Shown: one piece after another, positions 29,714 through 49,336 of the stretch
Layout of the letters: each line of letters opens with the position of its first letter
How positions within the stretch are numbered: position 1 is the stretch's first letter
From: Escherichia coli
GTDB lineage: Bacteria; Pseudomonadota; Gammaproteobacteria; Enterobacterales; Enterobacteriaceae
Reading direction: 5' to 3' (one strand)
Length of the DNA stretch: 64,000 nucleotides
Assembly (NCBI RefSeq): GCF_030013205.1
Contig: NZ_CP122648.1
The notes under the pieces: model-generated
Told to the model about the DNA's origin: nothing
The model's database searches: none
Seen by the model: only the letters and a program-made list of their open reading frames with translations
Translations under genes and position numbers: made by a program

Positions 29714-30046
29714 TTAGACGTAAATATCAATGGTGCCAGCGGTATTTGTATCGTCTTTTTTCTCTTCTTTTTTATCAGGCTGAACTGTCGCGTCTTCATT
29801 CTTTTTCTCTGCCTGCTGCCTTAACAACTGCTCCAGTTGAGCCCAGAGGCTTTCAATTTGCTTCTGTACCAATGCAGCCATTTCTTTTTTCTGCTGTGTC
29901 GTCATCCCCTCTTCCGATGAGATTTTCCCAAGCTTTTCAGTCAGCACCTGAATTTGTCTTGTGATTTTGGCTATTTCTGATGTTCCTTCCGGGGCGGAGT
30001 TGTTTGAAATAACGGTTGAGGTATTTCCCTGAATTGTGACAGACAT
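29714..30046 (-). CDS. flxA: FlxA (FliA-regulated protein, coiled-coil, Lys/Glu-rich C-terminus)
   Basis: 110-aa ORF MSVTIQGNTSTVISNNSAPEGTSEIAKITRQIQVLTEKLG... Confidence 0.9.
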   Translation of the reverse strand: MSVTIQGNTSTVISNNSAPEGTSEIAKITRQIQVLTEKLGKISSEEGMTTQQKKEMAALVQKQIESLWAQLEQLLRQQAEKKNEDATVQPDKKEEKKDDTNTAGTIDIYV

Positions 30047-30069
30047 AGATTTCTCCTTTTAAAAAAGCA

Positions 30070-30096
30070 CTATCGGCATGCACAAAAAAATCTTTA
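30070..30096 (-). promoter_or_regulatory. sigma-28 (FliA) class promoter for flxA
   Basis: Minus strand reads TAAAGATT-N11-GCCGATAG, matching consensus TAAAGTTT-N11-GCCGATAA, about 25-50 nt upstream of the flxA ATG. Confidence 0.6.
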
Positions 30097-30248
30097 ATCG
30101 TATTTCTTGTGTCATTAATTGTTTGATGTTCAGATTGTTTTCCTCGCGGGCTGGCGCGCCTCAGAAAGTAAAGCTTGTTGACAGGGGTAAACGTTCGGCA
30201 ATAATTTTCTGCCGCATGCGGGTGTTGCATAAAACGTGTTACGTTCCT

Positions 30249-30554
30249 TTATCGACAGGTCAGGTCACCGCTCACCCGCCGACGAGAAAGCAACACTGAC
30301 ATGCTAAAGCAAAAAATAGATGAATAAGTTGAGTTGTGCATATGTAGCCTGACCGTCACAAAGTATATGGTGTCTGTACCAGTAAGATGATGGCCGGACT
30401 CTTTAAAAACGAGCTGACCTGCACAATACAGGATGGACTTAGCAATGGCTGCTCCTGGCACAAAGCGGACAGTGATCACCGTTCTTACGACTACTTTCTG
30501 ACTTCCTTCGTGACTTGCCCTAAGCATGTTGTAGTGCGATACTTGTAATGACAT
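30249..30554 (-). CDS. ydfV: hypothetical prophage protein (ydfV position)
   Basis: 101-aa ORF between flxA and relB, divergent from relB as in K-12; symbol by position and length only. Confidence 0.45.
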   Translation of the reverse strand: MSLQVSHYNMLRASHEGSQKVVVRTVITVRFVPGAAIAKSILYCAGQLVFKESGHHLTGTDTIYFVTVRLHMHNSTYSSIFCFSMSVLLSRRRVSGDLTCR

Positions 30555-30578
30555 TTGTAATTACAAGAGGTGTAAGAC

Positions 30579-30818
30579 ATGGGTAGCATTAACCTGCGTA
30601 TTGACGATGAACTTAAAGCGCGTTCTTACGCCGCGCTTGAAAAAATGGGTGTAACTCCTTCTGAAGCGCTTCGTCTCATGCTCGAGTATATCGCTGACAA
30701 TGAACGCTTGCCGTTCAAACAGACACTCCTGAGTGATGAAGATGCTGAACTTGTGGAGATAGTGAAAGAACGGCTTCGTAATCCTAAGCCAGTACGTGTG
30801 ACGCTGGATGAACTCTGA
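30579..30818 (+). CDS. relB: RelB antitoxin (RHH)
   Basis: 79-aa ORF MGSINLRIDDELKARSYAALEKMGVTPSEALRLMLEYIADNERLPF... Confidence 0.95.
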   Translation: MGSINLRIDDELKARSYAALEKMGVTPSEALRLMLEYIADNERLPFKQTLLSDEDAELVEIVKERLRNPKPVRVTLDEL

Positions 30819-31105
30819 TGGCGTATTTTCTGGATTTTGACGAGCGGGCACTAAAGGAATGGCGAAAGCTGGGCTCGACGGTACGTGAACAGTTGAAAAA
30901 GAAGCTGGTTGAAGTACTTGAGTCACCCCGGATTGAAGCAAACAAGCTCCGTGGTATGCCTGATTGTTACAAGATTAAGCTCCGGTCTTCAGGCTATCGC
31001 CTTGTATACCAGGTTATAGACGAGAAAGTTGTCGTTTTCGTGATTTCTGTTGGGAAAAGAGAACGCTCGGAAGTATATAGCGAGGCGGTCAAACGCATTC
31101 TCTGA
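30818..31105 (+). CDS. relE: RelE mRNA interferase toxin
   Basis: 95-aa ORF MAYFLDFDERALKEWRKLGSTVREQLKKKLVEVLESPRIEANKLRG...; start overlaps relB stop (ATGA). Confidence 0.95.
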   Translation: MAYFLDFDERALKEWRKLGSTVREQLKKKLVEVLESPRIEANKLRGMPDCYKIKLRSSGYRLVYQVIDEKVVVFVISVGKRERSEVYSEAVKRIL

Positions 31106-31176
31106 ACCAAAGCATGACATCTCTGTTTCGCACCGAAGGTGACACTTCTGCTTTGCGTTGACAGGAGAAGCAGGCT

Positions 31177-31332
31177 ATGAAGCAGCAAAAGGCGATGTTA
31201 ATCGCCCTGATCGTCATCTGTTTAACCGTCATAGTGACGGCACTGGTAACGAGGAAAGACCTCTGCGAGGTACGAATCCGAACCGGCCAGACGGAGGTCG
31301 CTGTCTTCACAGCTTACGAACCTGAGGAGTAA
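31177..31332 (+). CDS. hokD: Hok-family membrane toxin HokD (RelF)
   Basis: Manual translation: MKQQKAMLIALIVICLTVIVTALVTRKDLCEVRIRTGQTEVAVFTAYEPEE (51 aa); below the ORF-track cutoff. Confidence 0.85.
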   Translation: MKQQKAMLIALIVICLTVIVTALVTRKDLCEVRIRTGQTEVAVFTAYEPEE

Positions 31333-31401
31333 GAGACCCGGCGGGGGAGAAATCCCTCGCCACCTCTGATGTGGCAGGCATCCTCAACGCACCCGCACTT
31401 A

Positions 31402-31430
31402 ACCCGCTTCGGCGGGTTTTTGTTTTTATT
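31402..31430 (+). terminator. rho-independent terminator after relBE-hokD
   Basis: cccgc-ttcg-gcggg hairpin followed by tttttgtttttatttt. Confidence 0.6.
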
Positions 31431-31548
31431 TTCAACGCGTTTGAAGTTCTGGACGGTGCCGGAATAGAATCAAAAATACTTAAGTAGCGCGCAGGGATAA
31501 GAGGGATGGTCCCTTAAAGGGGAGAGCTAATTATCCGGAAGGATTCTG

Positions 31549-31800
31549 ATGATGAACATCGAAGAACTGCGTAAAATTTTTTGTGAAGATGGCCTCTATG
31601 CTGTGTGCGTTGAAAATGGAAATCTTGTTAGTCATTACCGCATTATGTGTTTGCGAAAGAATGGGGCTGCGTTAATTAATTTTGTGGATGCTCGGGTCAC
31701 GGACGGATTTATCTTGCGCGAAGGTGAGTTTGTCACTTCATTACAGGCATTGAAAGAGATCGGAATAAAAGCTGGCTTTTCTGCTTTTTCAGGAGAATAA
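31549..31800 (+). CDS. rem: Qin prophage protein Rem
   Basis: 83-aa ORF MMNIEELRKIFCEDGLYAVCVENGNLVSHYRIMCLRKNGAALINFVDARV... Confidence 0.8.
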   Translation: MMNIEELRKIFCEDGLYAVCVENGNLVSHYRIMCLRKNGAALINFVDARVTDGFILREGEFVTSLQALKEIGIKAGFSAFSGE

Positions 31801-31866
31801 ACTCATCTACAATCTTGCGCGGGGCTGAACTCCCGCTGAGTAACACCGTGCCACCGGAGAAAACCG

Positions 31867-32145
31867 ATGGCACGCAACGCAAAATATTACAATTCTGATA
31901 ATTCGCCCGTTCTTGCCTGCACGCACGGGCGGTATTCTCACGCATTCAAGTCTGAATGGTTCCAGCACCCTCCATGCACTGCAGAACAGGCCGAATGGCT
32001 GATTCATTCTTACCGCAGGCGCGGGTTCGAGGTTAAGAAAGCTCTCAGTCTCGACTATCGGCACTGGATAATCTCTGTCAGGCTGCCTTATTCCGAACGC
32101 CCACCACGTGCGTCCCGCACTTTCCAGCAACGGATCTGGAGGTAA
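31867..32145 (+). CDS. hypothetical small prophage protein
   Basis: 92-aa ORF overlapping the ydfU start by 38 nt; no recognisable motif; may be spurious. Confidence 0.3.
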   Translation: MARNAKYYNSDNSPVLACTHGRYSHAFKSEWFQHPPCTAEQAEWLIHSYRRRGFEVKKALSLDYRHWIISVRLPYSERPPRASRTFQQRIWR

Positions 32146-33196
32146 CGTGCGGGTATTACTTAGACCTGTTCTGGTGCCTGAGCTTGGGCTGGTGGTCCTT
32201 AAGCCGGGCCGTGAATCCATACAGATATTTCATAATCCTCGAGTGCTGGTGGAACCGGAACCAAAAAGCATGCGTAATCTGCCATCCGGAGTCGTTCCTG
32301 CCGTTCGCCAGCCGCTGGCGGAAGACAAAACATTGCTGCCGTTTTTTAGTAACGAACTGGTGATTCGTGCTGCTGGCGGCGTTGGCGCATTGTCCGACTG
32401 GCTATTACGTCATGTTACATCCTGCCAGTGGCCTAATGGCGATTACCATCACACTGAAACAGTCATTCACCGTTATGGTACCGGCGCAATGGTGTTGTGC
32501 TGGCACTGCGACAACCAACTGCGTGACCAGACATCGGAATCACTGGAGCTGCTTGCTCAACAAAATCTGACAGCATGGGTGATTGACGTCATCCGTCACG
32601 CAATAAGCGGTACGCAGGAGCGGGAATTATCTTTGGCTGAATTATCCTGGTGGGCGGTCTGCAATCAGGTGGTGGATGCACTACCTGAGGCTGTATCGCG
32701 TCGTTCGCTGGGATTACCAGCGGAAAAAATCTGCTCGGTGTACCGCGAAAGCGACATCGTACCGGGAGAGCAGACCGCCACCAGCATATTGAAACAACGC
32801 ACAAAAAATCTTGCACCGTTGCCTTACGCCCACCAGCAACAAAAATCACCACAGGAAAAGACGGTGGTAAGAATCACCGTTGATCCAGAGTCTCCGGAAT
32901 CTTTCATGAAGCTGCCTAAACGTCGCCGCTGGGTTAAGGAGAAATACACACGTTGGGTTAAGACACAGCCGTGTGCTTGCTGCGGTATGCCAGCCGACGA
33001 TCCGCATCATCTGATTGGTCACGGGCAGGGCGGAATGGGAACAAAAGCACATGATCTCTTTGTGTTGCCTTTGTGCAGAAAGCATCACAACGAGCTGCAT
33101 ACGGATACAGTGGCATTTGAAGATAAGTATGGCTCCCAACTGGAGCTGATATTTCGTTTTATCGATCGCGCGCTGGCAATTGGCGTACTGGCGTAA
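32108..33196 (+). CDS. ydfU: DUF968-family prophage protein YdfU (Cys/His-rich C-terminus)
   Basis: 362-aa ORF; C-terminal CACCGMPADDPHHLIGHGQGGMGTKAHDLFVLPLCRKHHNELH metal-binding-like region. Confidence 0.8.
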   Translation: MRPALSSNGSGGNVRVLLRPVLVPELGLVVLKPGRESIQIFHNPRVLVEPEPKSMRNLPSGVVPAVRQPLAEDKTLLPFFSNELVIRAAGGVGALSDWLLRHVTSCQWPNGDYHHTETVIHRYGTGAMVLCWHCDNQLRDQTSESLELLAQQNLTAWVIDVIRHAISGTQERELSLAELSWWAVCNQVVDALPEAVSRRSLGLPAEKICSVYRESDIVPGEQTATSILKQRTKNLAPLPYAHQQQKSPQEKTVVRITVDPESPESFMKLPKRRRWVKEKYTRWVKTQPCACCGMPADDPHHLIGHGQGGMGTKAHDLFVLPLCRKHHNELHTDTVAFEDKYGSQLELIFRFIDRALAIGVLA

Positions 33197-33209
33197 GTGG
33201 AGAACGAGC

Positions 33210-33962
33210 ATGAACCTTGAAGCCTTACCAAAATATTACTCCCCAAAATCTCCAAAATTGAGCGATGACGCTCCAGCGACAGGCACCGGTTGTTTAACAA
33301 TTACGGATGTAATGGCAGCGCAGGGGATGGTGCAGTCGAAAGCACCACTTGGGTTGGCCTTATTTCTGGCAAAAGTTGGTGTTCAGGACCCTCAGTTTGC
33401 GATTGAAGGCCTGCTAAATTACGCGATGGCACTGGATAACCCGACATTGAACAAATTGAGTGAAGAAATCCGGTTACAGATTATTCCTTACCTCGTGAGT
33501 TTTGCCTTTGCTGATTACTCCAGGTCTGCGGCAAGTAAGGCTCGCTGTGAGCATTGTTCAGGTACGGGATTTTATAATGTATTGCGCGAAGTGGTGAAAC
33601 ACTACAGACGCGGGGAATCTGTAATCAAGGAAGAATGGGTGAAGGAACTATGTCAGCATTGCCATGGTAAGGGCGAAGCCAGCACAGCGTGCAGAGGGTG
33701 TAAGGGTAAAGGGATTGTTCTGGATGAAAAAAGAACCCGGTTTCATGGCGTACCGGTATATAAGATTTGTGGGCGTTGTAATGGAAACCGGTTTAGTCGT
33801 TTACCGACCACGCTGGCACGACGTCATGTCCAGAAGCTGGTACCAGACCTGACCGATTATCAGTGGTATAAGGGGTATGCGGACGTCATTGGTAAACTGG
33901 TAACAAAGTGCTGGCAGGAAGAAGCATACGCGGAAGCGCAATTGAGGAAGGTGACGAGATAA
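33210..33962 (+). CDS. quuQ: late-gene antiterminator Q
   Basis: ORF 33180..33962 begins at TTG; ATG at 33210 (MNLEALPKYY); Cys cluster CEHCSGTGF...CQHCHGKGE...CRGCKGKG...CGRCNG. Confidence 0.85.
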   Translation: MNLEALPKYYSPKSPKLSDDAPATGTGCLTITDVMAAQGMVQSKAPLGLALFLAKVGVQDPQFAIEGLLNYAMALDNPTLNKLSEEIRLQIIPYLVSFAFADYSRSAASKARCEHCSGTGFYNVLREVVKHYRRGESVIKEEWVKELCQHCHGKGEASTACRGCKGKGIVLDEKRTRFHGVPVYKICGRCNGNRFSRLPTTLARRHVQKLVPDLTDYQWYKGYADVIGKLVTKCWQEEAYAEAQLRKVTR

Positions 33963-33993
33963 ATGATTTTTGCTGAAGATGGCGACATGATGT

Positions 33994-34022
33994 TTGCATT
34001 TTTCAAAAAATATGGATAAAAT
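33994..34022 (+). promoter_or_regulatory. candidate late promoter (PR'-like) downstream of Q
   Basis: TTGCAT-N17-TAAAAT about 30 nt after the quuQ stop. Confidence 0.45.
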
Positions 34023-34070
34023 TTTTTCAACGATGGGCTTTGTATACCCGACGTTAAGAAAAAGTAGAAA

Positions 34071-34091
34071 ACCCGCTGATGAGCGGGTTTT
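34071..34091 (+). terminator. tR'-like rho-independent terminator
   Basis: acccgct-gatg-agcgggt hairpin followed by ttttgtgcttt, roughly 50 nt downstream of the candidate late promoter. Confidence 0.55.
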
Positions 34092-34383
34092 GTGCTTTAA
34101 ATGGGGCAATGGTAATGTTGAATCTCATCCCGGGACTCATGTCTGTTAACTTATTATTTAGCTGGTGACTTGGTTATTTGCCTGATGTTTAAAATGTTTT
34201 CTTCCAGTACAATGTCCCTAAACACAATGAGTCTGCTTATTATATTATTAGCAGAGCTATTACGGCCAAAGTACAGCATAAGCTTTTAAAGCCAATCAAC
34301 CAGTCATCAAGACAGACGGGGTTATTCATAAAAACTCTCCATGTGTGATCCGATGGGGCCTGAAATTAAAGCTTTAATATAGC

Positions 34384-34596
34384 TCATGAAAGGTAAACAT
34401 TGGCAGCTGAAGGGCCACGCAGACCATTTATCCGGCAAAATTCCACGCGTAATCCGGTGGTAATTTCTTCTGCATCGCGGAGATTGAGCGCTGAAACATG
34501 AAGCTGGACATCGATACGACCATCGGATGGGGTGATAAGACCCTTGCCGCTTTTGCCGTCAAAGGTTTTGACAATTCCTGTCATTTTACGGGACAA
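34384..34596 (-). CDS. cspF: cold-shock protein CspF
   Basis: 70-aa [44 protein letters not shown]... Confidence 0.9.
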
Positions 34597-34896
34597 AAAA
34601 ATTCCTTAATACTGATAACTTGGCGCACTATACACACGTTCCTGAAGAAAGCTATAGTTTTTTGATGGGGTTGAAGATGGCTGGATGTCTAAAATAAACA
34701 TTGCTTCATATGTTCAACTATGCGTTAATGATTGCGTCGGTTTGAAGAACAGACGATATACGAAGTAGTTTACTAAAGCAGTTCTCATTTCAGGTGTTAT
34801 TCACTTATTCCTTCTTTGAGTCTCTCCAATTAAGTACGAAGTCGTTTCTGTTATGCAAACCATTTATGCCGAAAGGCTCAAGTTAAGGAATGTAGA

Positions 34897-35112
34897 ATGT
34901 CAAATAAAATGACTGGTTTAGTAAAATGGTTTAACGCTGATAAAGGTTTCGGCTTTATTTCTCCTGTTGATGGTAGTAAAGATGTGTTTGTGCATTTTTC
35001 TGCGATTCAGAATGATAATTATCGAACCTTATTTGAAGGTCAAAAGGTTACCTTCTCTATAGAGAGTGGTGCTAAAGGTCCTGCAGCAGCAAATGTCATC
35101 ATTACTGATTAA
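34897..35112 (+). CDS. cspB: cold-shock protein CspB
   Basis: 71-aa [54 protein letters not shown]... Confidence 0.9.
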
Positions 35113-35475
35113 AATTCATCGCTCGTCTGTATACGATAACGAAGAAGGCTGATGCCTGAGTAGAGATACGGACAGAGTAGTGAATATTGGATCTCTTTAA
35201 TAAAAAGTAAGGAGGTCCAATACATGAAACAATGGCTAGCATATTTGGCAAAATCTTAATCAGGAAAAGTATGCTAACCATTGTGGTGAAGTGCAGGTTT
35301 GCTGAATGAATAGTTTTACAGCAGAAGCTAACTGCTGGCATGGCAAAACAAAGTGCGTAAGTGGATGACTCCCACAAAAAGCACCACAATCTCAAACCCG
35401 CTCAGGCGGGTTTTTTATTATCTGCTTTAAATATATTATTAAAATATAAAAAATACTTGTTACTAATAAAATCAA

Positions 35476-35697
35476 TCAGGCTACAGCTTTAAGATTTGTC
35501 TGGAATACTTTGTTGCAATGAGGGCAGATCAAAAGGGCACCTTTTTGTACTCTTGAAAAACTGTGTTCTGACTCTTGGGTGCAGTTTGGGCAGGAACATT
35601 TAACGAGATAATTACGGCGTGATTTTGAGTTTTTACGTTCTGACATAGGCTTTTCCTGTATAAATGGCCGTATACAGTACACTAAATATGAAAACAT
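35476..35697 (-). CDS. small zinc-ribbon protein (CxxC-x18-CxxC)
   Basis: 73-aa ORF; likely start at internal Met (MSERKNSKSRRNYLVKCSCPNCTQESEHSFSRVQKGALLICPHCNKVF). Confidence 0.4.
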   Translation of the reverse strand: MFSYLVYCIRPFIQEKPMSERKNSKSRRNYLVKCSCPNCTQESEHSFSRVQKGALLICPHCNKVFQTNLKAVA

Positions 35698-35865
35698 TTC
35701 TCGTATTATTATTTTATATATGACTTTCTTTCAAAATAATTACCCACATTTTTAATGTGTATGTTTTTTTAGCGCCGTTGAGAACAACGTGTGCTGTCAA
35801 AACTACCCCGTAGACTCCGATCTTTTCAAACATATTGCACCATCCGTGTACATCGGGGTGAGGAT

Positions 35866-36081
35866 ATGAAATCAATGGATAAGTTAACAACAGGTGTTGC
35901 CTATGGCACATCGGCGGGTAATGCTGGTTTCTGGGCATTGCAGTTACTCGATAAAGTAACTCCGTCACAGTGGGCTGCAATCGGTGTGCTGGGTAGCCTG
36001 GTTTTTGGCCTGCTGACGTATCTGACAAATCTTTATTTCAAGATTAAAGAAGACAGGCGTAAGGCTGCGAGAGGAGAGTAA
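35866..36081 (+). CDS. essQ: class II (pin)holin
   Basis: ATG at 35866 after GGTGAGGA; [71 protein letters not shown] (71 aa, two TM, charged C-terminus). Confidence 0.85.
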
Positions 36082-36085
36082 TCCA

Positions 36086-36393
36086 ATGACTCAAGACTAT
36101 GAACTGGTTGTGAAAGGAGTCCGTAATTTTGAGAATAAAGTTACGGTAACTGTAGCCTTACAGGACAAAGAACGCTTTGACGGTGAAATTTTTGACCTGG
36201 ATGTCGCCATGGACCGTGTTGAAGGAGCTGCGCTGGAGTTTTATGAGGCAGCAGCCAGAAGGAGCGTCCGGCAAGTCTTCCTGGAAGTAGCAGAAAAATT
36301 GTCAGAAAAAGTTGAGTCTTATCTGCAGCATCAGTACTCCTTTAAGATTGAAAATCCTGCCAATAAGCACGAGCGTCCTCATCATAAATATCT

Positions 36394-36397
<4 letters not shown>
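36086..36397 (+). CDS. ydfR: Qin prophage protein YdfR
   Basis: 103-aa ORF between holin and lysozyme genes. Confidence 0.8.
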
Positions 36398-37421
<1,024 letters not shown>

Positions 37422-37782
37422 GGTAATATTAAATCGGAACATTTACATCGCGGAATGTAAAATTTAAATAAAAAGGACTCTTCCATGAGCCAAAATTCCT
37501 GAAATCTTAAGGGTAAGATAAAAGGTCTTAATCAGAATGACACGTTTTATTAATAAATAAAGCTATTCTTTCATTGCTGTGTTTTTCTTTACAAAAGTAA
37601 TCCTTGCTATGGGTGGTTAATCATGCGTTAATGGTGTTCTGGTTTGTTACAAATTTATCTGAAGCAGTCATTGTTATAATTTTATTATTTGTACCTCTTG
37701 AGATTTCCTTGTTGGTTTTTCTCTCTGATATTTTTTTCGGACCATTCTGCCCAAGGGCTAATTTCTTCAAAAGGTAATAATT

Positions 37783-37995
37783 ATGTCTAACAAAATGACT
37801 GGTTTAGTGAAATGGTTTAACCCTGAAAAAGGTTTTGGTTTCATCACGCCGAAAGATGGCAGCAAAGATGTGTTTGTCCATTTCTCAGCAATTCAGAGCA
37901 ACGATTTCAAAACATTAACTGAGAATCAGGAAGTTGAATTTGGTATTGAGAACGGACCTAAAGGTCCTGCCGCTGTTCATGTAGTGGCGCTTTGA
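37783..37995 (+). CDS. cspI: cold-shock protein CspI
   Basis: 70-aa [54 protein letters not shown]... Confidence 0.9.
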
Positions 37996-38197
37996 GGTAG
38001 ACAATATTACAAACCATATTCACTTTAGATGCCCGTGTTGTCATGGTTCCCAGTATAGAACATCATCTTTTGATGTTTCTGACATGAATCCTTTCGGGGC
38101 AAAATGTATCTTTTGTAAATCAATGATGATTACATTTGATAATATTTCACAATACTTAAATGCCAGCCGTCTGTCGTTGGATTTGAAAAAGTGAAAA

Positions 38198-38222
38198 TGA
38201 AGGCTCCTTCGGGAGCTTTTTT
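38198..38222 (+). terminator. rho-independent terminator (UUCG tetraloop)
   Basis: gctcc-ttcg-ggagc followed by tttttt. Confidence 0.5.
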
Positions 38223-38266
38223 GCTTGGTGTCTATTCGATGGATACTCACATACTACGGTAACATC

Positions 38267-38497
38267 ATGAAAAAAATCATAGTTTTTTTTAACTCTGAAC
38301 CAGCAGTGGTAGTGCCAGCGATGACTGGAGTTAACACCATCATGCGTGAATATCCAAATGGCGAAAAAACACACCTTACTGTAATGGCCGCAGGGTTTCC
38401 ATCTCTGACCGGAGATCATAAAGTCATTTATGTAGCCGCGGATCGACATGTTACTTCAGAAGAAATTCTGGAAGCAGCAATAAGGCTCTTGAGTTGA
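38267..38497 (+). CDS. hypothetical prophage protein (76 aa)
   Basis: ATG at 38267 (MKKIIVFFNSEPAVVVPAMTGVNTIMREYPNGEK...) inside ORF 38225..38497. Confidence 0.5.
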   Translation: MKKIIVFFNSEPAVVVPAMTGVNTIMREYPNGEKTHLTVMAAGFPSLTGDHKVIYVAADRHVTSEEILEAAIRLLS

Positions 38498-38665
38498 TTT
38501 GATGCTATTGCATTGATAATTCAGGAAAATTCTCTTTGTCTGTTTGTGTAAAATTTAGACTATCGTATGTTGATTATTGCGATGTTTCATCTTATCTTTT
38601 ACACGTTTGCACCATATAATCGACTTACTGTGTAACTGGAAAGTCATAACAGACTAAAAGAGGAA

Positions 38666-38842
38666 ATGATGAATATTGAAAACTTAAAAACAAAAGCAGA
38701 AGCAGATATTTCTGAATATATAACAAAAAAAATTATTGAACTTAAGAAAAAGACCGGGAAAGAAGTTACCAGTATTCAGTTTACCGCACGGGAAAAAATG
38801 ACGGGTCTTGAAAGCTATGATGTCAAGATTAATTTAATCTGA
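38666..38842 (+). CDS. gnsB: Gns-family protein (GnsB-like)
   Basis: Manual translation MMNIENLKTKAEADISEYITKKIIELKKKTGKEVTSIQFTAREKMTGLESYDVKINLI; AGAGGAAATG start context. Confidence 0.8.
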   Translation: MMNIENLKTKAEADISEYITKKIIELKKKTGKEVTSIQFTAREKMTGLESYDVKINLI

Positions 38843-38993
38843 TGTATTCAATAATAAAATTTATCCATAAACCTCGTTTTTACGGGGTTTTGTTATATTT
38901 GAATGGTTCCGAATATCTAAATCACAATTGTTGATGGTTTTTATTAAACCAATGCAGTCCGGCTCAGGAGTGAGAGAAGCCGGACGTTATGGT

Positions 38994-39404
38994 TTAGCGT
39001 GGTAAGATCTGTGTAGTTTTCTGGATGCTTTCAGTAAATAGTAATGAATTATCAAAGGTATAGTAATATCTTTTTTGTTCGTGGATATTTGTAACCCACC
39101 GAAAAACTCCTGCTTTAGCAAGGTTTCTTCTGTATTCCTGAAATGTGATCTCTCTGGATTTCAGCTTATTAGAGGTCGTTTCTATAAGATGCCTATCCTT
39201 TGAAAATTTGACAGACACAATGTTTTTTAGGCCCTTTAATAACACTGTATTATCATTTTTTAATACAATATGAACATTCTCTGTGGCTAAATAGTAAATG
39301 TAATGTGAGACATTGTGACGTTTTAGCTCAGAATAAAACCATTGATAGTTTAAATCGTTTCGAACTTTATCAAATATTTGTTTAAAAATGACTACCTGAT
39401 CCAT
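38994..39404 (-). CDS. ydfO: DUF1398-family prophage protein YdfO
   Basis: ORF 38994..39419; probable start at [23 protein letters not shown] (136 aa). Confidence 0.75.
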
Positions 39405-39461
39405 AGATAAACCTTCCATGTGATATGAGGGGGCGTAGTCTGCACGATTATCTAAATTGCT

Positions 39462-39695
39462 TCAATCTGGTCTGACCTGTTTTCTGAGCAATTCAGTAAT
39501 GTCACTCTTTTCTTTGTTTGCTTCAGAAGAAACTCTTTTTTCTGAGCACAGTCTCCGGCGGCAGGCTTCAATGACCCAGGCTGAGAAATTCCCGGACCCT
39601 TTTTGCTCAAGAGCGATGTTAATTTGTTCAATCATTTGGTTAGGAAAGCGGATGTTGCGGGTTGTTGTTCTGCGGGTTCTGTTCTTCGTTGACAT
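39462..39695 (-). CDS. small RHH/Arc-like DNA-binding protein (YlcI-like)
   Basis: 77-aa ORF MSTKNRTRRTTTRNIRFPNQMIEQINIALEQKGSGNFSAWVIEACRRRL...; sits just upstream of cos and Nu1. Confidence 0.65.
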   Translation of the reverse strand: MSTKNRTRRTTTRNIRFPNQMIEQINIALEQKGSGNFSAWVIEACRRRLCSEKRVSSEANKEKSDITELLRKQVRPD

Positions 39696-39879
39696 GAGGT
39701 TGCCCCGTATTCAGTGTCGCTGATTTGTATTGTCTGAAGTTGTTTTTACGTTAAGTTGATGCAGATCAATTAATACGATACCTGCGTCATAATTGATTAT
39801 TTGACGTGGTTTGATGGCCTCCACGCACGTTGTGATATGTAGATGATAATCATTATCGCTTTACGGGTCCTTTCCGGTG

Positions 39880-39990
39880 ATCCGACAGGTTACGGGGCGG
39901 CGACCTCGCGGGTTTTCGCTATTTATGAAAATTTTCCGGTTTAAGGTGTTTCCGTTCTTCTTCGTCGTAACTTAATGTTTTTATTTAAAA
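39880..39990 (+). other. lambda-type cos site (cosQ-cosN-cosB), cosN GGGCGGCGACCT at 39895..39906
   Basis: ...acaggttacg|gggcggcgacctcgcgggttttcgctatttatgaaaattttccggtttaagg... reproduces the lambda end-join and left-end sequence; Nu1 ATG follows about 190 nt later as in lambda. Confidence 0.85.
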
Positions 39991-40083
39991 TACCCCCTGA
40001 AAAGAAAGGAAACGACAGGTGCTGAAAGCGAGCTTTTTGGCCTCTGTCGTTTCCTTTCTCTGTTTTTGTCCGTGGAATGAGCA

Positions 40084-44576: not shown

Positions 44577-45167
44577 TTATATGTCAGGTGTCTGAAGTTT
44601 TGCTTTGGCTCTTAAAATGGTTTGCCGCGAGGTTTTGAATTCCCGGGCAATGGCACTTATACTTACACCTGACTTAATTCGTTCGAATACCGCCTGTTTC
44701 TGTTCTTCATTTAACACAGGTGGTCGACCAAAACGTTTCCCTGCGCCGCGGGCACTTACTATCCCGGAATGAGTGCGTTCAAGTAAAAGGTCTCGTTCAA
44801 ATTCAGCGACTGCTGAAATTACTTGCATCATCATTTTTCCTGTTGGACTGGTCAGGTCAATGCCCCCCAATGCTAAGCAATGCACTCTGATACCTGTTTC
44901 GGTCAGTTGTTCCACTGTTTTCCTGATATCCATTGCATTACAACCAAGGCGATCCAGTTTTGTCACAATCAATTGATCACCACATTTCAGGCGAGCAAGC
45001 AACCGGTTAAAACCAGGACGCTCACTGGTTGCTGCTGAGCCGCTAATGTGTTCTTCGATTATTTGCTGAGGTTTGATTTTAAAACCTGCACTTTCGATTT
45101 CCCGGCGTTGATTTTCGGTGGTCTGATCCAGCGTTGATATCCGACAGTAAGCAAAAATTCGAGACAT
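44577..45167 (-). CDS. pinQ: serine recombinase DNA invertase Pin
   Basis: 196-aa [23 protein letters not shown]... with catalytic Ser in YCRIST and C-terminal HTH. Confidence 0.95.
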
Positions 45168-45483
45168 AGTGAGACTCTATACGAAATTGGTGTTCATATC
45201 ATAATGCATCTCAGAAAATAATTATGATTATTTTTGTGCATATTTGTATGTACACGTTCGAAAATAAACGAATGCGTATGCAACCCCGTAATTTTGGTGA
45301 GACCCAAAATCGATTTTGTGAAAAATGGCTTTAACTCGGTTTGTTTTTCGAGTTCCGGGCGGACTCAAGGAAGAAGAATAGTGTTGCGTGTTATTTTAAC
45401 CAGATTTCAAGTTGTTTGGTCGTGGAAAAGTGGAGCAAAATGTTGTTAAAGTGGAAAAATGATAAAAAAGTAAGTTTATTATA

Positions 45484-45717
45484 TTACATTTTACCATTTA
45501 AATTTTGGTTGTCTTTAAGAACTGATATCGCTGTTTGTAATAATTCTTTGTTATCCAGCCATGATTTTTTCTTTATGTTTCCTTCAATGTAATCAAGCAA
45601 TGTTCTGGTATTGATAGGTCTTCCCTGTTTTGCTACTTCCACTACAGCATCCCCTAGGATAATTCTTACTTCAGGAAGCTGCGCAGGGAACCACTTTAGG
45701 GTGTCTTTTGATTTCAT
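45484..45717 (-). CDS. ydfK: Qin prophage protein YdfK
   Basis: ORF 45484..45750; start at MKSKDTLKWFPAQLPEVRIILGDAVVEVAKQG (77 aa). Confidence 0.8.
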   Translation of the reverse strand: MKSKDTLKWFPAQLPEVRIILGDAVVEVAKQGRPINTRTLLDYIEGNIKKKSWLDNKELLQTAISVLKDNQNLNGKM

Positions 45718-46497
45718 GAAGATATTCCTTAAAATATTATTGATTTTCATTGCGATATTGTATGTCTGATTCAGGATATGTTGACTTATACATCGGTTTT
45801 GTCTGGGTTATTGGATATGCCAATCCCTAATTTTATTAGGGCATGACTAAAAATGCTGAATATGATAAGGAGAGATGTGATTATCAGTATGCTGTTCATA
45901 TAGCCTCGAATTAGTAATGTGTTATATATGATATAGTTGACAATTTTTATCTTGGGTGTTCTTAAAGTTCGTAGATAAACATTGTCGTTTCAGGTATACA
46001 GGAATGCTAACAGGTGGCAGCAAAAATCAGGCGGTTTATGGCGCAAGCTGAAGCGGCAACTGCAAACTATCTTATGCAGAGACTCTACACGGATTGGGTT
46101 TAAAAGTATACATAGATAACAGTTTTTATCTGAAAAAGAAAAATATCAAGGTGATATAGCCTATATGCCTTTGATGCGGAGGAATGAATGTGATGGGAGT
46201 GATGTATCTGAATAGTTGAAAAACCGCAGACACGCCTTATGCAAGAACGTGCTGCGGTTGGCTGGTAAATTTTTCGATAGTGTGAGTATTGAATGATTTC
46301 CAGCCGTTCTTGATTTTACGCATAAATCCATGAAAAAACTACTTATCTGTTGGGGAGTTTTTTTGGGGCATATATGGGACAGAAATAGGCCCCAGATAGA
46401 CACTGAGATCGAACTTAGGATGCTTTTTAAAAAATGCAACTATCTGAAAAAACCTAGAAAACGCCAAGGAAACCACAGGATGGGAAAAAACACCTGT

Positions 46498-46511
46498 GAA
46501 TTATGGATTTC
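46498..46511. repeat. prophage attachment-site core repeat, distal copy (gaattatggatttc)
   Basis: Matches 18992..19006 (ttatggatttc identical); coincides with the start of the ydfJ 3' portion. Confidence 0.55.
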
Positions 46512-47786
46512 CAGTTATATTCGCTCGGCGCAGCGTTAGTGTTTCATGAAATATTTTTTCCTGAATCATCAACGGCAATGGCGTTAATTCTGGCAATGGG
46601 AACCTACGGTGCAGGTTATGTGGCGCGTATTGTCGGAGCATTTATTTTCGGCAAAATGGGCGACAGAATCGGGCGTAAAAAAGTGCTCTTTATTACCATC
46701 ACTATGATGGGGATCTGTACTACCTTAATTGGTGTGCTGCCGACCTATGCACAAATTGGTGTGTTTGCGCCAATTTTGCTGGTGACGCTGCGTATTATTC
46801 AGGGGCTGGGGGCAGGCGCGGAAATTTCCGGTGCCGGCACGATGCTGGCGGAATATGCACCAAAAGGTAAGCGCGGAATTATCTCCTCATTTGTTGCTAT
46901 GGGGACTAACTGCGGAACCTTGAGCGCAACGGCAATCTGGGCCTTTATGTTCTTCATTCTCAGTAAAGAGGAACTGCTTGCGTGGGGATGGCGTATACCG
47001 TTCCTGGCGAGCGTTGTCGTGATGGTCTTTGCTATCTGGTTGCGTATGAATCTGAAAGAAAGCCCGGTCTTTGAGAAGGTTAACGACAGCAACCAACCGA
47101 CAGCAAAACCTGCACCTGCTGGTAGCATGTTCCAGAGCAAATCCTTCTGGCTGGCAACAGGGCTGCGTTTTGGTCAGGCTGGTAACTCCGGTTTAATTCA
47201 GACTTTCCTTGCAGGCTATTTAGTGCAGACGTTATTGTTTAACAAAGCAATTCCAACAGATGCATTGATGATCAGTTCGATTCTCGGCTTTATGACCATT
47301 CCGTTCCTTGGTTGGTTATCCGATAAAATAGGTCGCCGGATCCCGTATATTATTATGAATACCTCTGCGATTGTGCTGGCGTGGCCAATGCTTTCTATCA
47401 TCGTAGATAAAAGCTATGCCCCGAGCACCATTATGGTTGCACTGATTGTGATTCATAACTGTGCGGTGCTGGGATTATTTGCTCTGGAAAACATTACCAT
47501 GGCAGAAATGTTCGGCTGTAAAAACCGCTTTACCCGGATGGCGATTTCTAAAGAAATTGGTGGTCTTATCGCTTCCGGTTTTGGTCCTATCCTGGCGGGT
47601 ATTTTCTGCACCATGACGGAATCCTGGTATCCGATCGCCATTATGATCATGGCATATTCAGTGATTGGTTTAATCTCTGCGCTGAAAATGCCAGAAGTGA
47701 GAGACCGTGATTTAAGTGCACTGGAAGATGCCGCGGAAGATCAACCGCGTGTTGTAACAGCTGCGCAACCTTCAAGAAGTCTGTAA
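46503..47786 (+). pseudogene. ydfJ: MFS transporter YdfJ, 3' portion (427 codons) separated from its first ~29 codons by the prophage
   Basis: ORF begins MDFQLYSLGAALVF..., the same MDF at which the 5' fragment at 18914..19003 leaves the ydfJ frame. Confidence 0.8.
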
Positions 47787-47875
47787 ATCCTCCATCCCTT
47801 CTCTTACCGGAGAGGGGATTTTTTATTCATATAACAAAACATGCAGCTTGCCATATTTAAATTTAAGGAATTGTT

Positions 47876-49336
47876 ATGGGAAATAATTTGTTATCAGCAA
47901 AAGCGACGCTCCCTGTTTATGATCGTAATAACCTGGCCCCAAGAATTGTTCATTTAGGCTTTGGCGCATTTCACCGTGCGCATCAGGGCGTGTATGCCGA
48001 TATTCTTGCTACAAAACATTTCAGTGATTGGGGATATTATGAGGTCAATTTAATCGGCGGCGAACAGCAAATTGCCGATTTACAACAGCAAGATAATCTT
48101 TATACCGTTGCGGAAATGTCGGCCGATGCGTGGACGGCTCGCGTCGTTGGCGTCGTTAAAAAAGCCTTGCACGTACAGATAGATGGCTTAGAAACCGTGT
48201 TGGCTGCGATGTGTGAACCGCAAATCGCGATTGTCTCTCTGACAATCACCGAAAAAGGGTATTTCCACTCTCCGGCGACCGGACAGTTAATGCTCGATCA
48301 CCCGATGGTCGCTGCCGACGTGCAAAATCCCCACCAGCCGAAAACTGCAACAGGGGTGATTGTTGAGGCGCTGGCTCGCCGTAAAGCGGCAGGACTTCCC
48401 GCATTTACCGTCATGTCATGTGACAACATGCCAGAAAACGGTCATGTTATGCGTGACGTTGTCACTTCCTACGCGCAAGCTGTTGATGTAAAACTGGCAC
48501 AATGGATCGAAGTAAACGTGACTTTCCCATCAACAATGGTGGACCGTATTGTGCCCGCAGTGACAGAGGATACGCTGGCGAAAATCGAACAACTTACCGG
48601 TGTGCGCGATCCTGCTGGCGTTGCCTGTGAACCTTTCCGCCAGTGGGTAATAGAAGATAACTTTGTTGCCGGACGTCCGGAATGGGAAAAAGCGGGAGCC
48701 GAACTGGTTAGTGATGTGCTGCCTTATGAAGAGATGAAGTTGCGCATGCTCAACGGCAGTCATTCATTCCTGGCGTATCTGGGGTATCTTGCTGGATATC
48801 AGCACATTAATGACTGCATGGAAGATGAACATTATCGTCATGCAGCGTATGCCTTGATGTTGCAGGAACAAGCGCCGACGTTGAAAGTGCAGGGCGTTGA
48901 TTTGCAAGATTACGCTAACCGATTAATTGAACGCTATAGCAACCCGGCGCTACGTCATCGAACCTGGCAGATTGCGATGGATGGCAGCCAGAAATTGCCA
49001 CAGCGGATGTTGGATTCTGTTCGCTGGCATCTGGCGCATGACAGCAAGTTCGATCTGCTGGCGCTGGGCGTCGCAGGTTGGATGCGTTATGTCGGTGGTG
49101 TTGATGAACAGGGAAATCCGATAGAAATCAGTGACCCACTGTTACCTGTTATTCAGAAGGCTGTACAAAGTAGTGCCGAAGGGAAAGCGCGCGTCCAGTC
49201 ATTGCTGGCGATTAAGGCGATCTTTGGTGATGATTTGCCAGACAATAGCTTGTTTACTGCAAAAGTGACGGAAGCGTACTTGTCTTTATTAGCGCATGGT
49301 GCGAAAGCGACCGTTGCGAAATATTCCGTGAAGTAA
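47876..49336 (+). CDS. ydfI: mannitol-dehydrogenase-family oxidoreductase YdfI
   Basis: 486-aa ORF with N-terminal Rossmann GFGAFHRAH motif. Confidence 0.9.

Follow-up and report, generated by a model that had tools for sequence, protein, structure and literature searches.

The 64,000-nucleotide window analysed here, the whole stretch of E. coli DNA under consideration, is the reverse complement of the MG1655 chromosome, such that window position equals 1676451 minus the MG1655 coordinate. The region studied within it is the cryptic, defective Qin prophage of E. coli K-12. The 501 bases from 33900 to 34400 are 100% identical to K-12 (BW25113 and others) and were matched in 1771/5426 complete E. 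coli genomes. By the K-12 annotation, relB, relE, hokD, rem, ydfU and quuQ (also ydfT) lie in that order on the plus strand ahead of the interval of interest. The last of these (33210–33962) encodes a lambda-family Q antiterminator of 250 aa, annotated in the RefSeq K-12 records as an antitermination protein, and nothing is annotated in those records between it and ynfS. Further along, RefSeq places ynfS (34240–34329, minus strand), cspF (34384–34596, minus), cspB (34897–35112, plus) and ynfU (35476–35646, minus), followed by the lysis cassette of essQ (holin), ydfR, rrrQ (lysozyme) and rzpQ (35866–37421, plus). The lysis genes share the strand of the late promoter described below, and essQ–rzpQ is the presumed target of antiterminated transcription. 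The preliminary description had named cold-shock genes as the next neighbors of the control region and had put the lysis cassette 1.8 kb further on, and the annotation agrees: ynfS is followed by cspF and cspB, and the terminator and the holin start at 35866 are about 1.77 kb apart.

QuuQ is a member of Pfam family PF03589 (Pfam scan, E = 3.6e-54). It shares 33% identity with lambda Q (BLASTP, E = 2e-40) and matches the solved Q-lambda structures 7UBM and 7UBN (E = 4.6e-36) in an alignment that includes the N-terminal residues. The Q21 (PF06530) and Q82 (PF06323) families were not found in QuuQ, for which the Pfam scan returned only PF03589 and a DnaJ CxxCxGxG domain. Relative to lambda Q, the zinc arm of QuuQ carries a 48-aa insert that adds two CxxCxGxG motifs. 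The protein thus has four such motifs in a segment resembling the DnaJ zinc domain (33552–33791, residues about 115–194), and lambda Q has two. The long form of Q was found in most family members examined (phi80, HK225, SF6, YeP3, Erwinia phage 59 and KPP5665-2) and the short form in lambda and P22. Because the long form is the commoner one in the family, the solved lambda structure represents a reduced zinc arm.

A promoter about 30 nt after quuQ, followed within about 50 nt by an intrinsic terminator, had been proposed for this interval, and the sequence elements of both are present. The quuQ stop codon ends at 33962 and the −35 hexamer TTGCAT (33994–33999, plus) begins 31 bases on. It is separated from the −10 hexamer TAAAAT (34017–34022) by a 17-base spacer, TTTTCAAAAAATATGGA (34000–34016). 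The TTGCAT-N17-TAAAAT promoter at 33994–34022 has the −35 hexamer and the spacing of phi80 pR', and the consensus scan reads the same promoter as TTTGCA-18-TAAAAT with 9/12 matches. After a 6-base gap, TTTTTC, comes AACGATGGG (34029–34037), made up of AACGAT and GGG. These nine bases equal +1 to +9 of lambda pR', the bases that hold lambda's sigma-dependent pause element, and by this homology they are a putative sigma70-dependent pause element in Qin. In lambda, pR' transcription starts at the first A of AACGAT, a −10-like element at which sigma70 holds the polymerase at +16/+17 during Q loading, and the Q-binding element is placed between the −35 and −10 hexamers. By the same reading of the Qin sequence, the transcription start is predicted at 34029 (MG1655 1642422, minus strand), and the spacer, with the stretch TTTTCAAAAAAT between −35 and −10, would be the Q-binding element. 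A passage of PMC6606751 describes the lambda Q-binding element as embedded in the late promoter.

Promoter-like hexamer pairs occur at chance level in this 5 kb (10 found vs 8.8 expected). For the composite motif TTG-N20-TAnnnT-N6-AACGATGGG, the 64-kb window has a single occurrence, immediately 3' of the Q gene, and 0/100 shuffles contain it, so that it is the composite motif and not the hexamer pair alone that exceeds chance. A 51-codon ORF with a TTG start (33994–34149, plus) was rejected as a gene; it begins at the −35 hexamer and crosses the terminator. The same ORF is annotated as a hypothetical-protein CDS in phage PhiR42_1 (locus L085, 5285–5440), probably a spurious call. The ATG at 34033–34035 is part of the pause element, and its lambda equivalent reaches a stop after two codons. 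Among the rows listed in the Cappable-seq, SMRT-Cappable-seq, RNET-seq and Kim 2012 supplements, we found no entry near MG1655 1642422 or the older coordinate. A search of paper texts for the Qin late-promoter coordinates returned unrelated numbers only, and a literature search for quuQ/ydfT or the Qin late promoter found no description of the site.

The stem of the proposed terminator begins 45 bases after the −10 hexamer. It is G+C-rich and 10 bp long (34068–34077 paired with 34082–34091) and is closed by the loop GATG, so that the hairpin at 34068–34091 reads AAAACCCGCT-GATG-AGCGGGTTTT, then GTGCTTT. The hairpin is directly succeeded by UUUUGUGCUUU, and the control unit extends slightly beyond 34091, to about 34098. 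Based on the fold, Term-seq and relatives, we assign 34068–34098 (plus) as an intrinsic terminator equivalent to tR'. The hairpin alone folds with −14.8 kcal/mol, and the 72-base leader folds with −30.4 kcal/mol (z = −6.4 vs shuffles). An A run upstream of the stem allows the hairpin to be read also as a minus-strand terminator, and the scan calls it on the minus strand only, because the plus-strand T run is interrupted (tail TTTTGTGCTTT).

An "orphan" 3' end at MG1655 1642356, on the minus strand, appears three times in published Term-seq tables (Adams et al. 2021, PMC7815308). This coordinate is position 34095 on the plus strand of the window, inside the T run (...GGGUUUUGUGC). Two of the three rows give scores of 103,591 and 55,368 (PMC7815308), comparable to or higher than those of the hokD terminator (about 45,000–49,000; PMC7815308), and the tables list no opposite-strand 3' end between 1642300 and 1642499. 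The position of this 3' end indicates that RNA made in the direction of the proposed promoter stops at this terminator in growing K-12. Such an RNA is 67 bases long if it started at 34029; it could also originate upstream, in quuQ.

A second plus-strand 3' end is found in one Term-seq data set at 34263 (MG1655 1642188). It follows an A+U-rich hairpin (34230–34258) and lies antisense to ynfS (region 34213–34273), and some transcription therefore passes the terminator or begins beyond it. Between cspB and ynfU, the scan identified a terminator-like hairpin at 35394–35413 (region 35381–35441) with T runs flanking both sides. Minus-strand RNA, running in the direction of ynfU, has a Term-seq 3' end at 35391, so this hairpin may terminate both ways; on the plus strand, only Q-carrying polymerase would get past it to the lysis genes. 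Elsewhere in the prophage, Rfam cspA thermoregulator matches above the gathering score were found at cspB (34736–35128, plus, 159 bits) and cspI (37638–38022, plus, 114 bits), and the prophage cold-shock genes therefore retain the long structured cspA 5' leader. A weak Rfam match (25 bits vs a gathering score of 50, E = 0.04) to isrK, which in Salmonella Gifsy-1 is an Hfq-binding RNA made from an antiterminated promoter, lies just 3' of hokD at 31341–31422 (plus). It has a strong hairpin and T run at its end, and a hokD-assigned Term-seq 3' end maps within it at 31369.

The general scheme of Q gene, pR', Q-binding element, sigma-dependent pause element, terminator and late genes has been described (PMC9388147). 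The preliminary description recognized in the Qin interval the layout of a Q-utilisation promoter/terminator pair and called for comparison with the lambda qut site. That reading is supported by homology to lambda pR' and phi80 pR' and by the adjoining lambda-family Q. Lambda and Qin align element by element: TTGACT against TTGCAT at −35, a 17-base spacer of TATTGAATAAAATTGGG against TTTTCAAAAAATATGGA, TAAATT against TAAAAT at −10, a 6-base gap of TGACTC against TTTTTC, and AACGATGGG in both. The likeness to the lambda pR'/qut/6S RNA/tR' system thus comprises a PF03589 Q, the promoter geometry, the identical AACGATGGG at +1 to +9, and a cassette that directly follows the Q gene and precedes the lysis genes. 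The two systems differ in leader length (194 bases in lambda, about 67 in Qin), in the zinc-arm insert of QuuQ with its two extra motifs, and in the distance from terminator to holin, which is about 0.4 kb in lambda and is filled by 1.8 kb of cargo in Qin. The Qin spacer, the presumed Q-binding element, equals that of lambda at just 10/17 positions, and lambda has a −35-like TTGACT right before its pause element, whereas Qin does not.

The GenBank-annotated pR' of phi80 (JX871397) reads TTGCAT-N17-TAGATT-N7-AACGCTGGG. Like Qin, it combines a TTGCAT −35 hexamer and a 17-base spacer with a compact leader whose terminator lies about 50 bases after the −10 hexamer, and its Q protein, gp17, is also of the long form with four CxxC motifs. 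It differs in its pause element (AACGCT, seven bases after the −10 hexamer), in its spacer (TTCGCGGAAAAACTGGA), in a Q that is just 36.5% identical to QuuQ (tblastn), and in a holin that lies within 0.35 kb. The Q-binding site of phi80 is annotated at spacer bases 2–8 (JX871397). Phage mEp460 and the Stx2k phage are identical to Qin in the −35 hexamer, the spacer and AACGATGGGC; their terminator lies at the equal position, and more than 2 kb of cargo lies ahead of their late genes. They differ from Qin in a TAAGAT −10 hexamer, in another terminator stem followed by an uninterrupted T run, and in their cargo, which consists of a methylase, or of tRNA genes and stx2, in place of cold-shock genes. 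The Stx2c phages, compared by Q protein alone, have a Q that is 94% identical to QuuQ. By layout, the Qin leader can also be likened to StxS, a short RNA that runs from a late promoter to an immediate terminator in the pR'–tR' interval of Stx1 and Stx2a phages (PMC7547250).

We fetched 80 IMG/VR loci in which Q is 94–100% identical to QuuQ, and AACGATGGG is present after Q in 73 of the 80. Columns were compared in 25 distinct variants, made up of the IMG/VR relatives, mEp460 and phiSTEC1575-Stx2k (Q 93–100% identical). The share of variable columns was 24% in the last 103 bases of the Q coding sequence, 53% from the stop codon to the −35 hexamer, 17% from −35 to −10, 83% in the 6-base gap, 8% from +1 to +13 and 74% from +14 to +40. 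These relatives show no change in the −35 hexamer, in the 12 spacer bases next to it or from +1 to +10, and TTGCATTTTTCAAAAAAT is without variation. By these shares, conservation concentrates on the −35 hexamer, the expected Q-binding part of the spacer and the pause element. The −10 hexamer of the relatives is TAAGAT or TAGGAT. Their terminators have at least five different stems and loops, and the stem with its T run ends between +61 and +65 in 24/26 variants. A stem whose sequence changes while its position holds bears the mark of selection to keep a plus-strand terminator at a set distance. The T run of the relatives is uninterrupted (TTTTTTT), which makes the K-12 terminator a weaker version.

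The same arrangement extends beyond the close relatives. A terminator is found about 30–65 bases after the pause element in P22, phi80, HK225, the Stx2a phage EH1910, YeP3 and Erwinia phage 59. The same spacing holds for most of the distinct sequences obtained from a further 238 loci in three other clades. Exceptions are lambda and SF6, whose leaders are long and of the 6S type. Because the same order recurs across distant members, the compact Qin layout is the family norm. Every Q clade has its own conserved spacer.

The interval from terminator to holin is a variable cargo slot. It contains cspF and cspB in about half of the close relatives with enough sequence and none of the K-12 cargo genes in the remainder. 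The K-12 arrangement recurs unchanged in PhiR42_1, a genome deposited as that of a complete phage. In mEp460 (Q 94% identical), about 2.3 kb of hypothetical genes and a DNA methylase precede the holin, and in the Stx2k phage (Q 93% identical) stx2AB comes after about 2.3 kb of genes and three tRNA genes. It is well established that stx genes are located between Q/pR' and the lysis genes (PMC8065619), and Q-modified polymerase is processive for thousands of base pairs (PMC9388147). Given this precedent and this processivity, the 1.8-kb gap and the hairpin at 35394–35413 are no obstacle to late transcription of the Qin lysis genes. The cold-shock genes, which had been set against a Q site here, are ruled out as an argument, as the cargo in the slot varies among relatives. 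Late transcripts would carry cspB in sense orientation, and ynfS, cspF and ynfU in antisense.

We conclude with considerable confidence that 33994–34098 is the late-gene control cassette of Qin, homologous to lambda pR' with its qut site and to tR', and acting as a lambda-type switch. The cassette is an unannotated, previously undescribed instance of a textbook system; its start, its pause, the binding of QuuQ to the spacer and read-through are predicted from the DNA sequence. Host sigma70 RNA polymerase would initiate constitutively at about 34029. Sigma region 2 would then re-bind the −10-like AACGAT on the non-template strand, and the polymerase would pause after roughly 13–17 bases. Without QuuQ, it would resume and terminate at the hairpin, yielding an RNA of some 67 bases with its 3' end at 34095. 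With QuuQ, the protein would bind the −35/−10 spacer and load onto the paused polymerase, which would then read through this and subsequent terminators, the hairpin at 35394–35413 among them. Read-through would cross the cold-shock cargo and arrive at the lysis genes at 35866–37421. Several observations count against such a late switch: Qin is a defective prophage, its −35 hexamer agrees with the consensus at just 3/6 positions, its plus-strand T run is interrupted, and it lacks the −35-like TTGACT of lambda.

It is improbable, in our judgment, that the cassette now serves mainly as a constitutive small-RNA gene, with a trans-acting, StxS-like regulator of about 67 bases as its product and Q control as a vestige. 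The triple listing of the 34095 3' end is in line with such a gene, as is the predicted RNA, which consists of a 5' stem-loop, an A-rich single-stranded stretch (AAGAAAAAGUAGAAAA) and the terminator hairpin. StxS is a precedent for a pR' by-product RNA that became an Hfq-bound regulator (PMC7547250). In a RIL-seq-derived table (PMC8175672), the node cspF.ydfT.IGR (33963–34239) has 70 chimeric reads and 2 partners, but the table, which gives the node without a strand, assigns it an sRNA probability of 0.0024. The linker from the stem-loop to the terminator is poorly conserved, with the 74% variable columns at +14 to +40, and there is no known target. Nor is there an Rfam family match: a search of 30000–40000 with Rfam 15 at E <= 1 returned none over 33994–34098 and only the cspA thermoregulators and the weak isrK-like match elsewhere. 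A small-RNA function is also compatible with a Q switch, because StxS coexists with one.

We give very little credence to the idea that the hairpin is a mere 3' end shared by the ydfU–quuQ transcript (plus) and a convergent cspF–ynfS transcript (minus), with promoter hexamers arisen by chance: the scan does call a minus-strand terminator, with an A run and a T run flanking the stem, promoter-like sites are no commoner than in shuffled sequence, and Term-seq is silent on the 5' origin of the RNA ending at 34095, yet the −35 hexamer, the first 12 spacer bases and AACGATGGG are invariant where the neighboring intergenic bases vary, AACGATGGG is lambda +1 to +9 in the layout of phi80 and lambda pR', the composite motif is absent from all 100 shuffles, the relatives' longer T run lies on the plus strand (TTTTTTT), which favors plus-strand use, and no minus-strand 3' end is listed within about 200 bases.

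With the cassette read as a lambda-type switch, its leader RNA and a possible conserved 5' hairpin in that RNA are the sole parts that might repay more work. The minimum-energy fold of the leader predicts a 5' stem-loop at 34029–34055 (plus), in which 34029–34032 pair with 34052–34055 and 34034–34037 with 34047–34050. AACG and UGGG, at the start of the Qin leader, have their partner segments CGUU and CCCG at +19 to +27. Across lambda-family late promoters (loci L003–L333, downstream of Q), the pause hexamer is complementary to a stretch 14–34 bases downstream. The partner tracks the hexamer as the hexamer changes: AACGA/UCGUU (in lambda too), AACAG/CUGUU, UAACA/UGUUA, AAGGA/UUCUU, UCGU/ACGA, UCAU/AUGA, UUAU/AUAA, UUGU/ACAA, UAGUG/CACUA and UAAUG/CAUUA.

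At least four contiguous pairs with the segment's own hexamer were found in 94% of 125 unique segments (25 hexamer types), as compared to 36% with a hexamer of another class (maximum 46% in 500 permutations); some hexamer anchors in this test are doubtful, and since the sequences are related these pairing figures are not probabilities. Pairing with the own hexamer exceeded pairing with foreign ones in 18/25 classes. In 94/125 segments, folding is better for the plus-strand RNA than for the reverse complement, an advantage that points to G-U pairs and hence to RNA. In a 22-sequence alignment, a 5-bp helix named by hand is 87% paired, vs 24–46% when the partner is slid, and one of its pairs switches between G-C (12 sequences) and A-U (7). 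When 22 leaders were aligned with MAFFT, RNAalifold predicted no structure. The pause hexamer of the KPP5665-like clade starts just 3–4 bases after the −10 hexamer, so the RNA may start inside the pause hexamer. These pairing patterns suggest a conserved 5' stem-loop in lambda-family leader RNA. In the single lambda pause paper searched for it, such a 5' hairpin is not mentioned.

We put forward only tentatively, and as rather unlikely, the further proposal that this 5' hairpin, which contains the RNA copy of the pause element, is an undescribed control element under selection, and that K-12 constantly makes a structured RNA of about 67 bases (34029–34095), possibly StxS-like. If so, the hairpin might stabilize the RNA or keep its 5' end off terminator folding, or it might sit outside the Q ring as a stopper. 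A textbook system would gain an RNA element if the hairpin proves genuine.

The cassette gives the Qin late promoter, pause signal and terminator their positions in the K-12 genome and accounts for the "orphan" Term-seq 3' end. The compact leader emerges as the usual form in the lambda Q family, with the long 6S RNA of lambda as the exception. Since the same cassette lies upstream of stx2 in the Stx2k phage (Q 93% identical), its properties bear on Shiga toxin expression.
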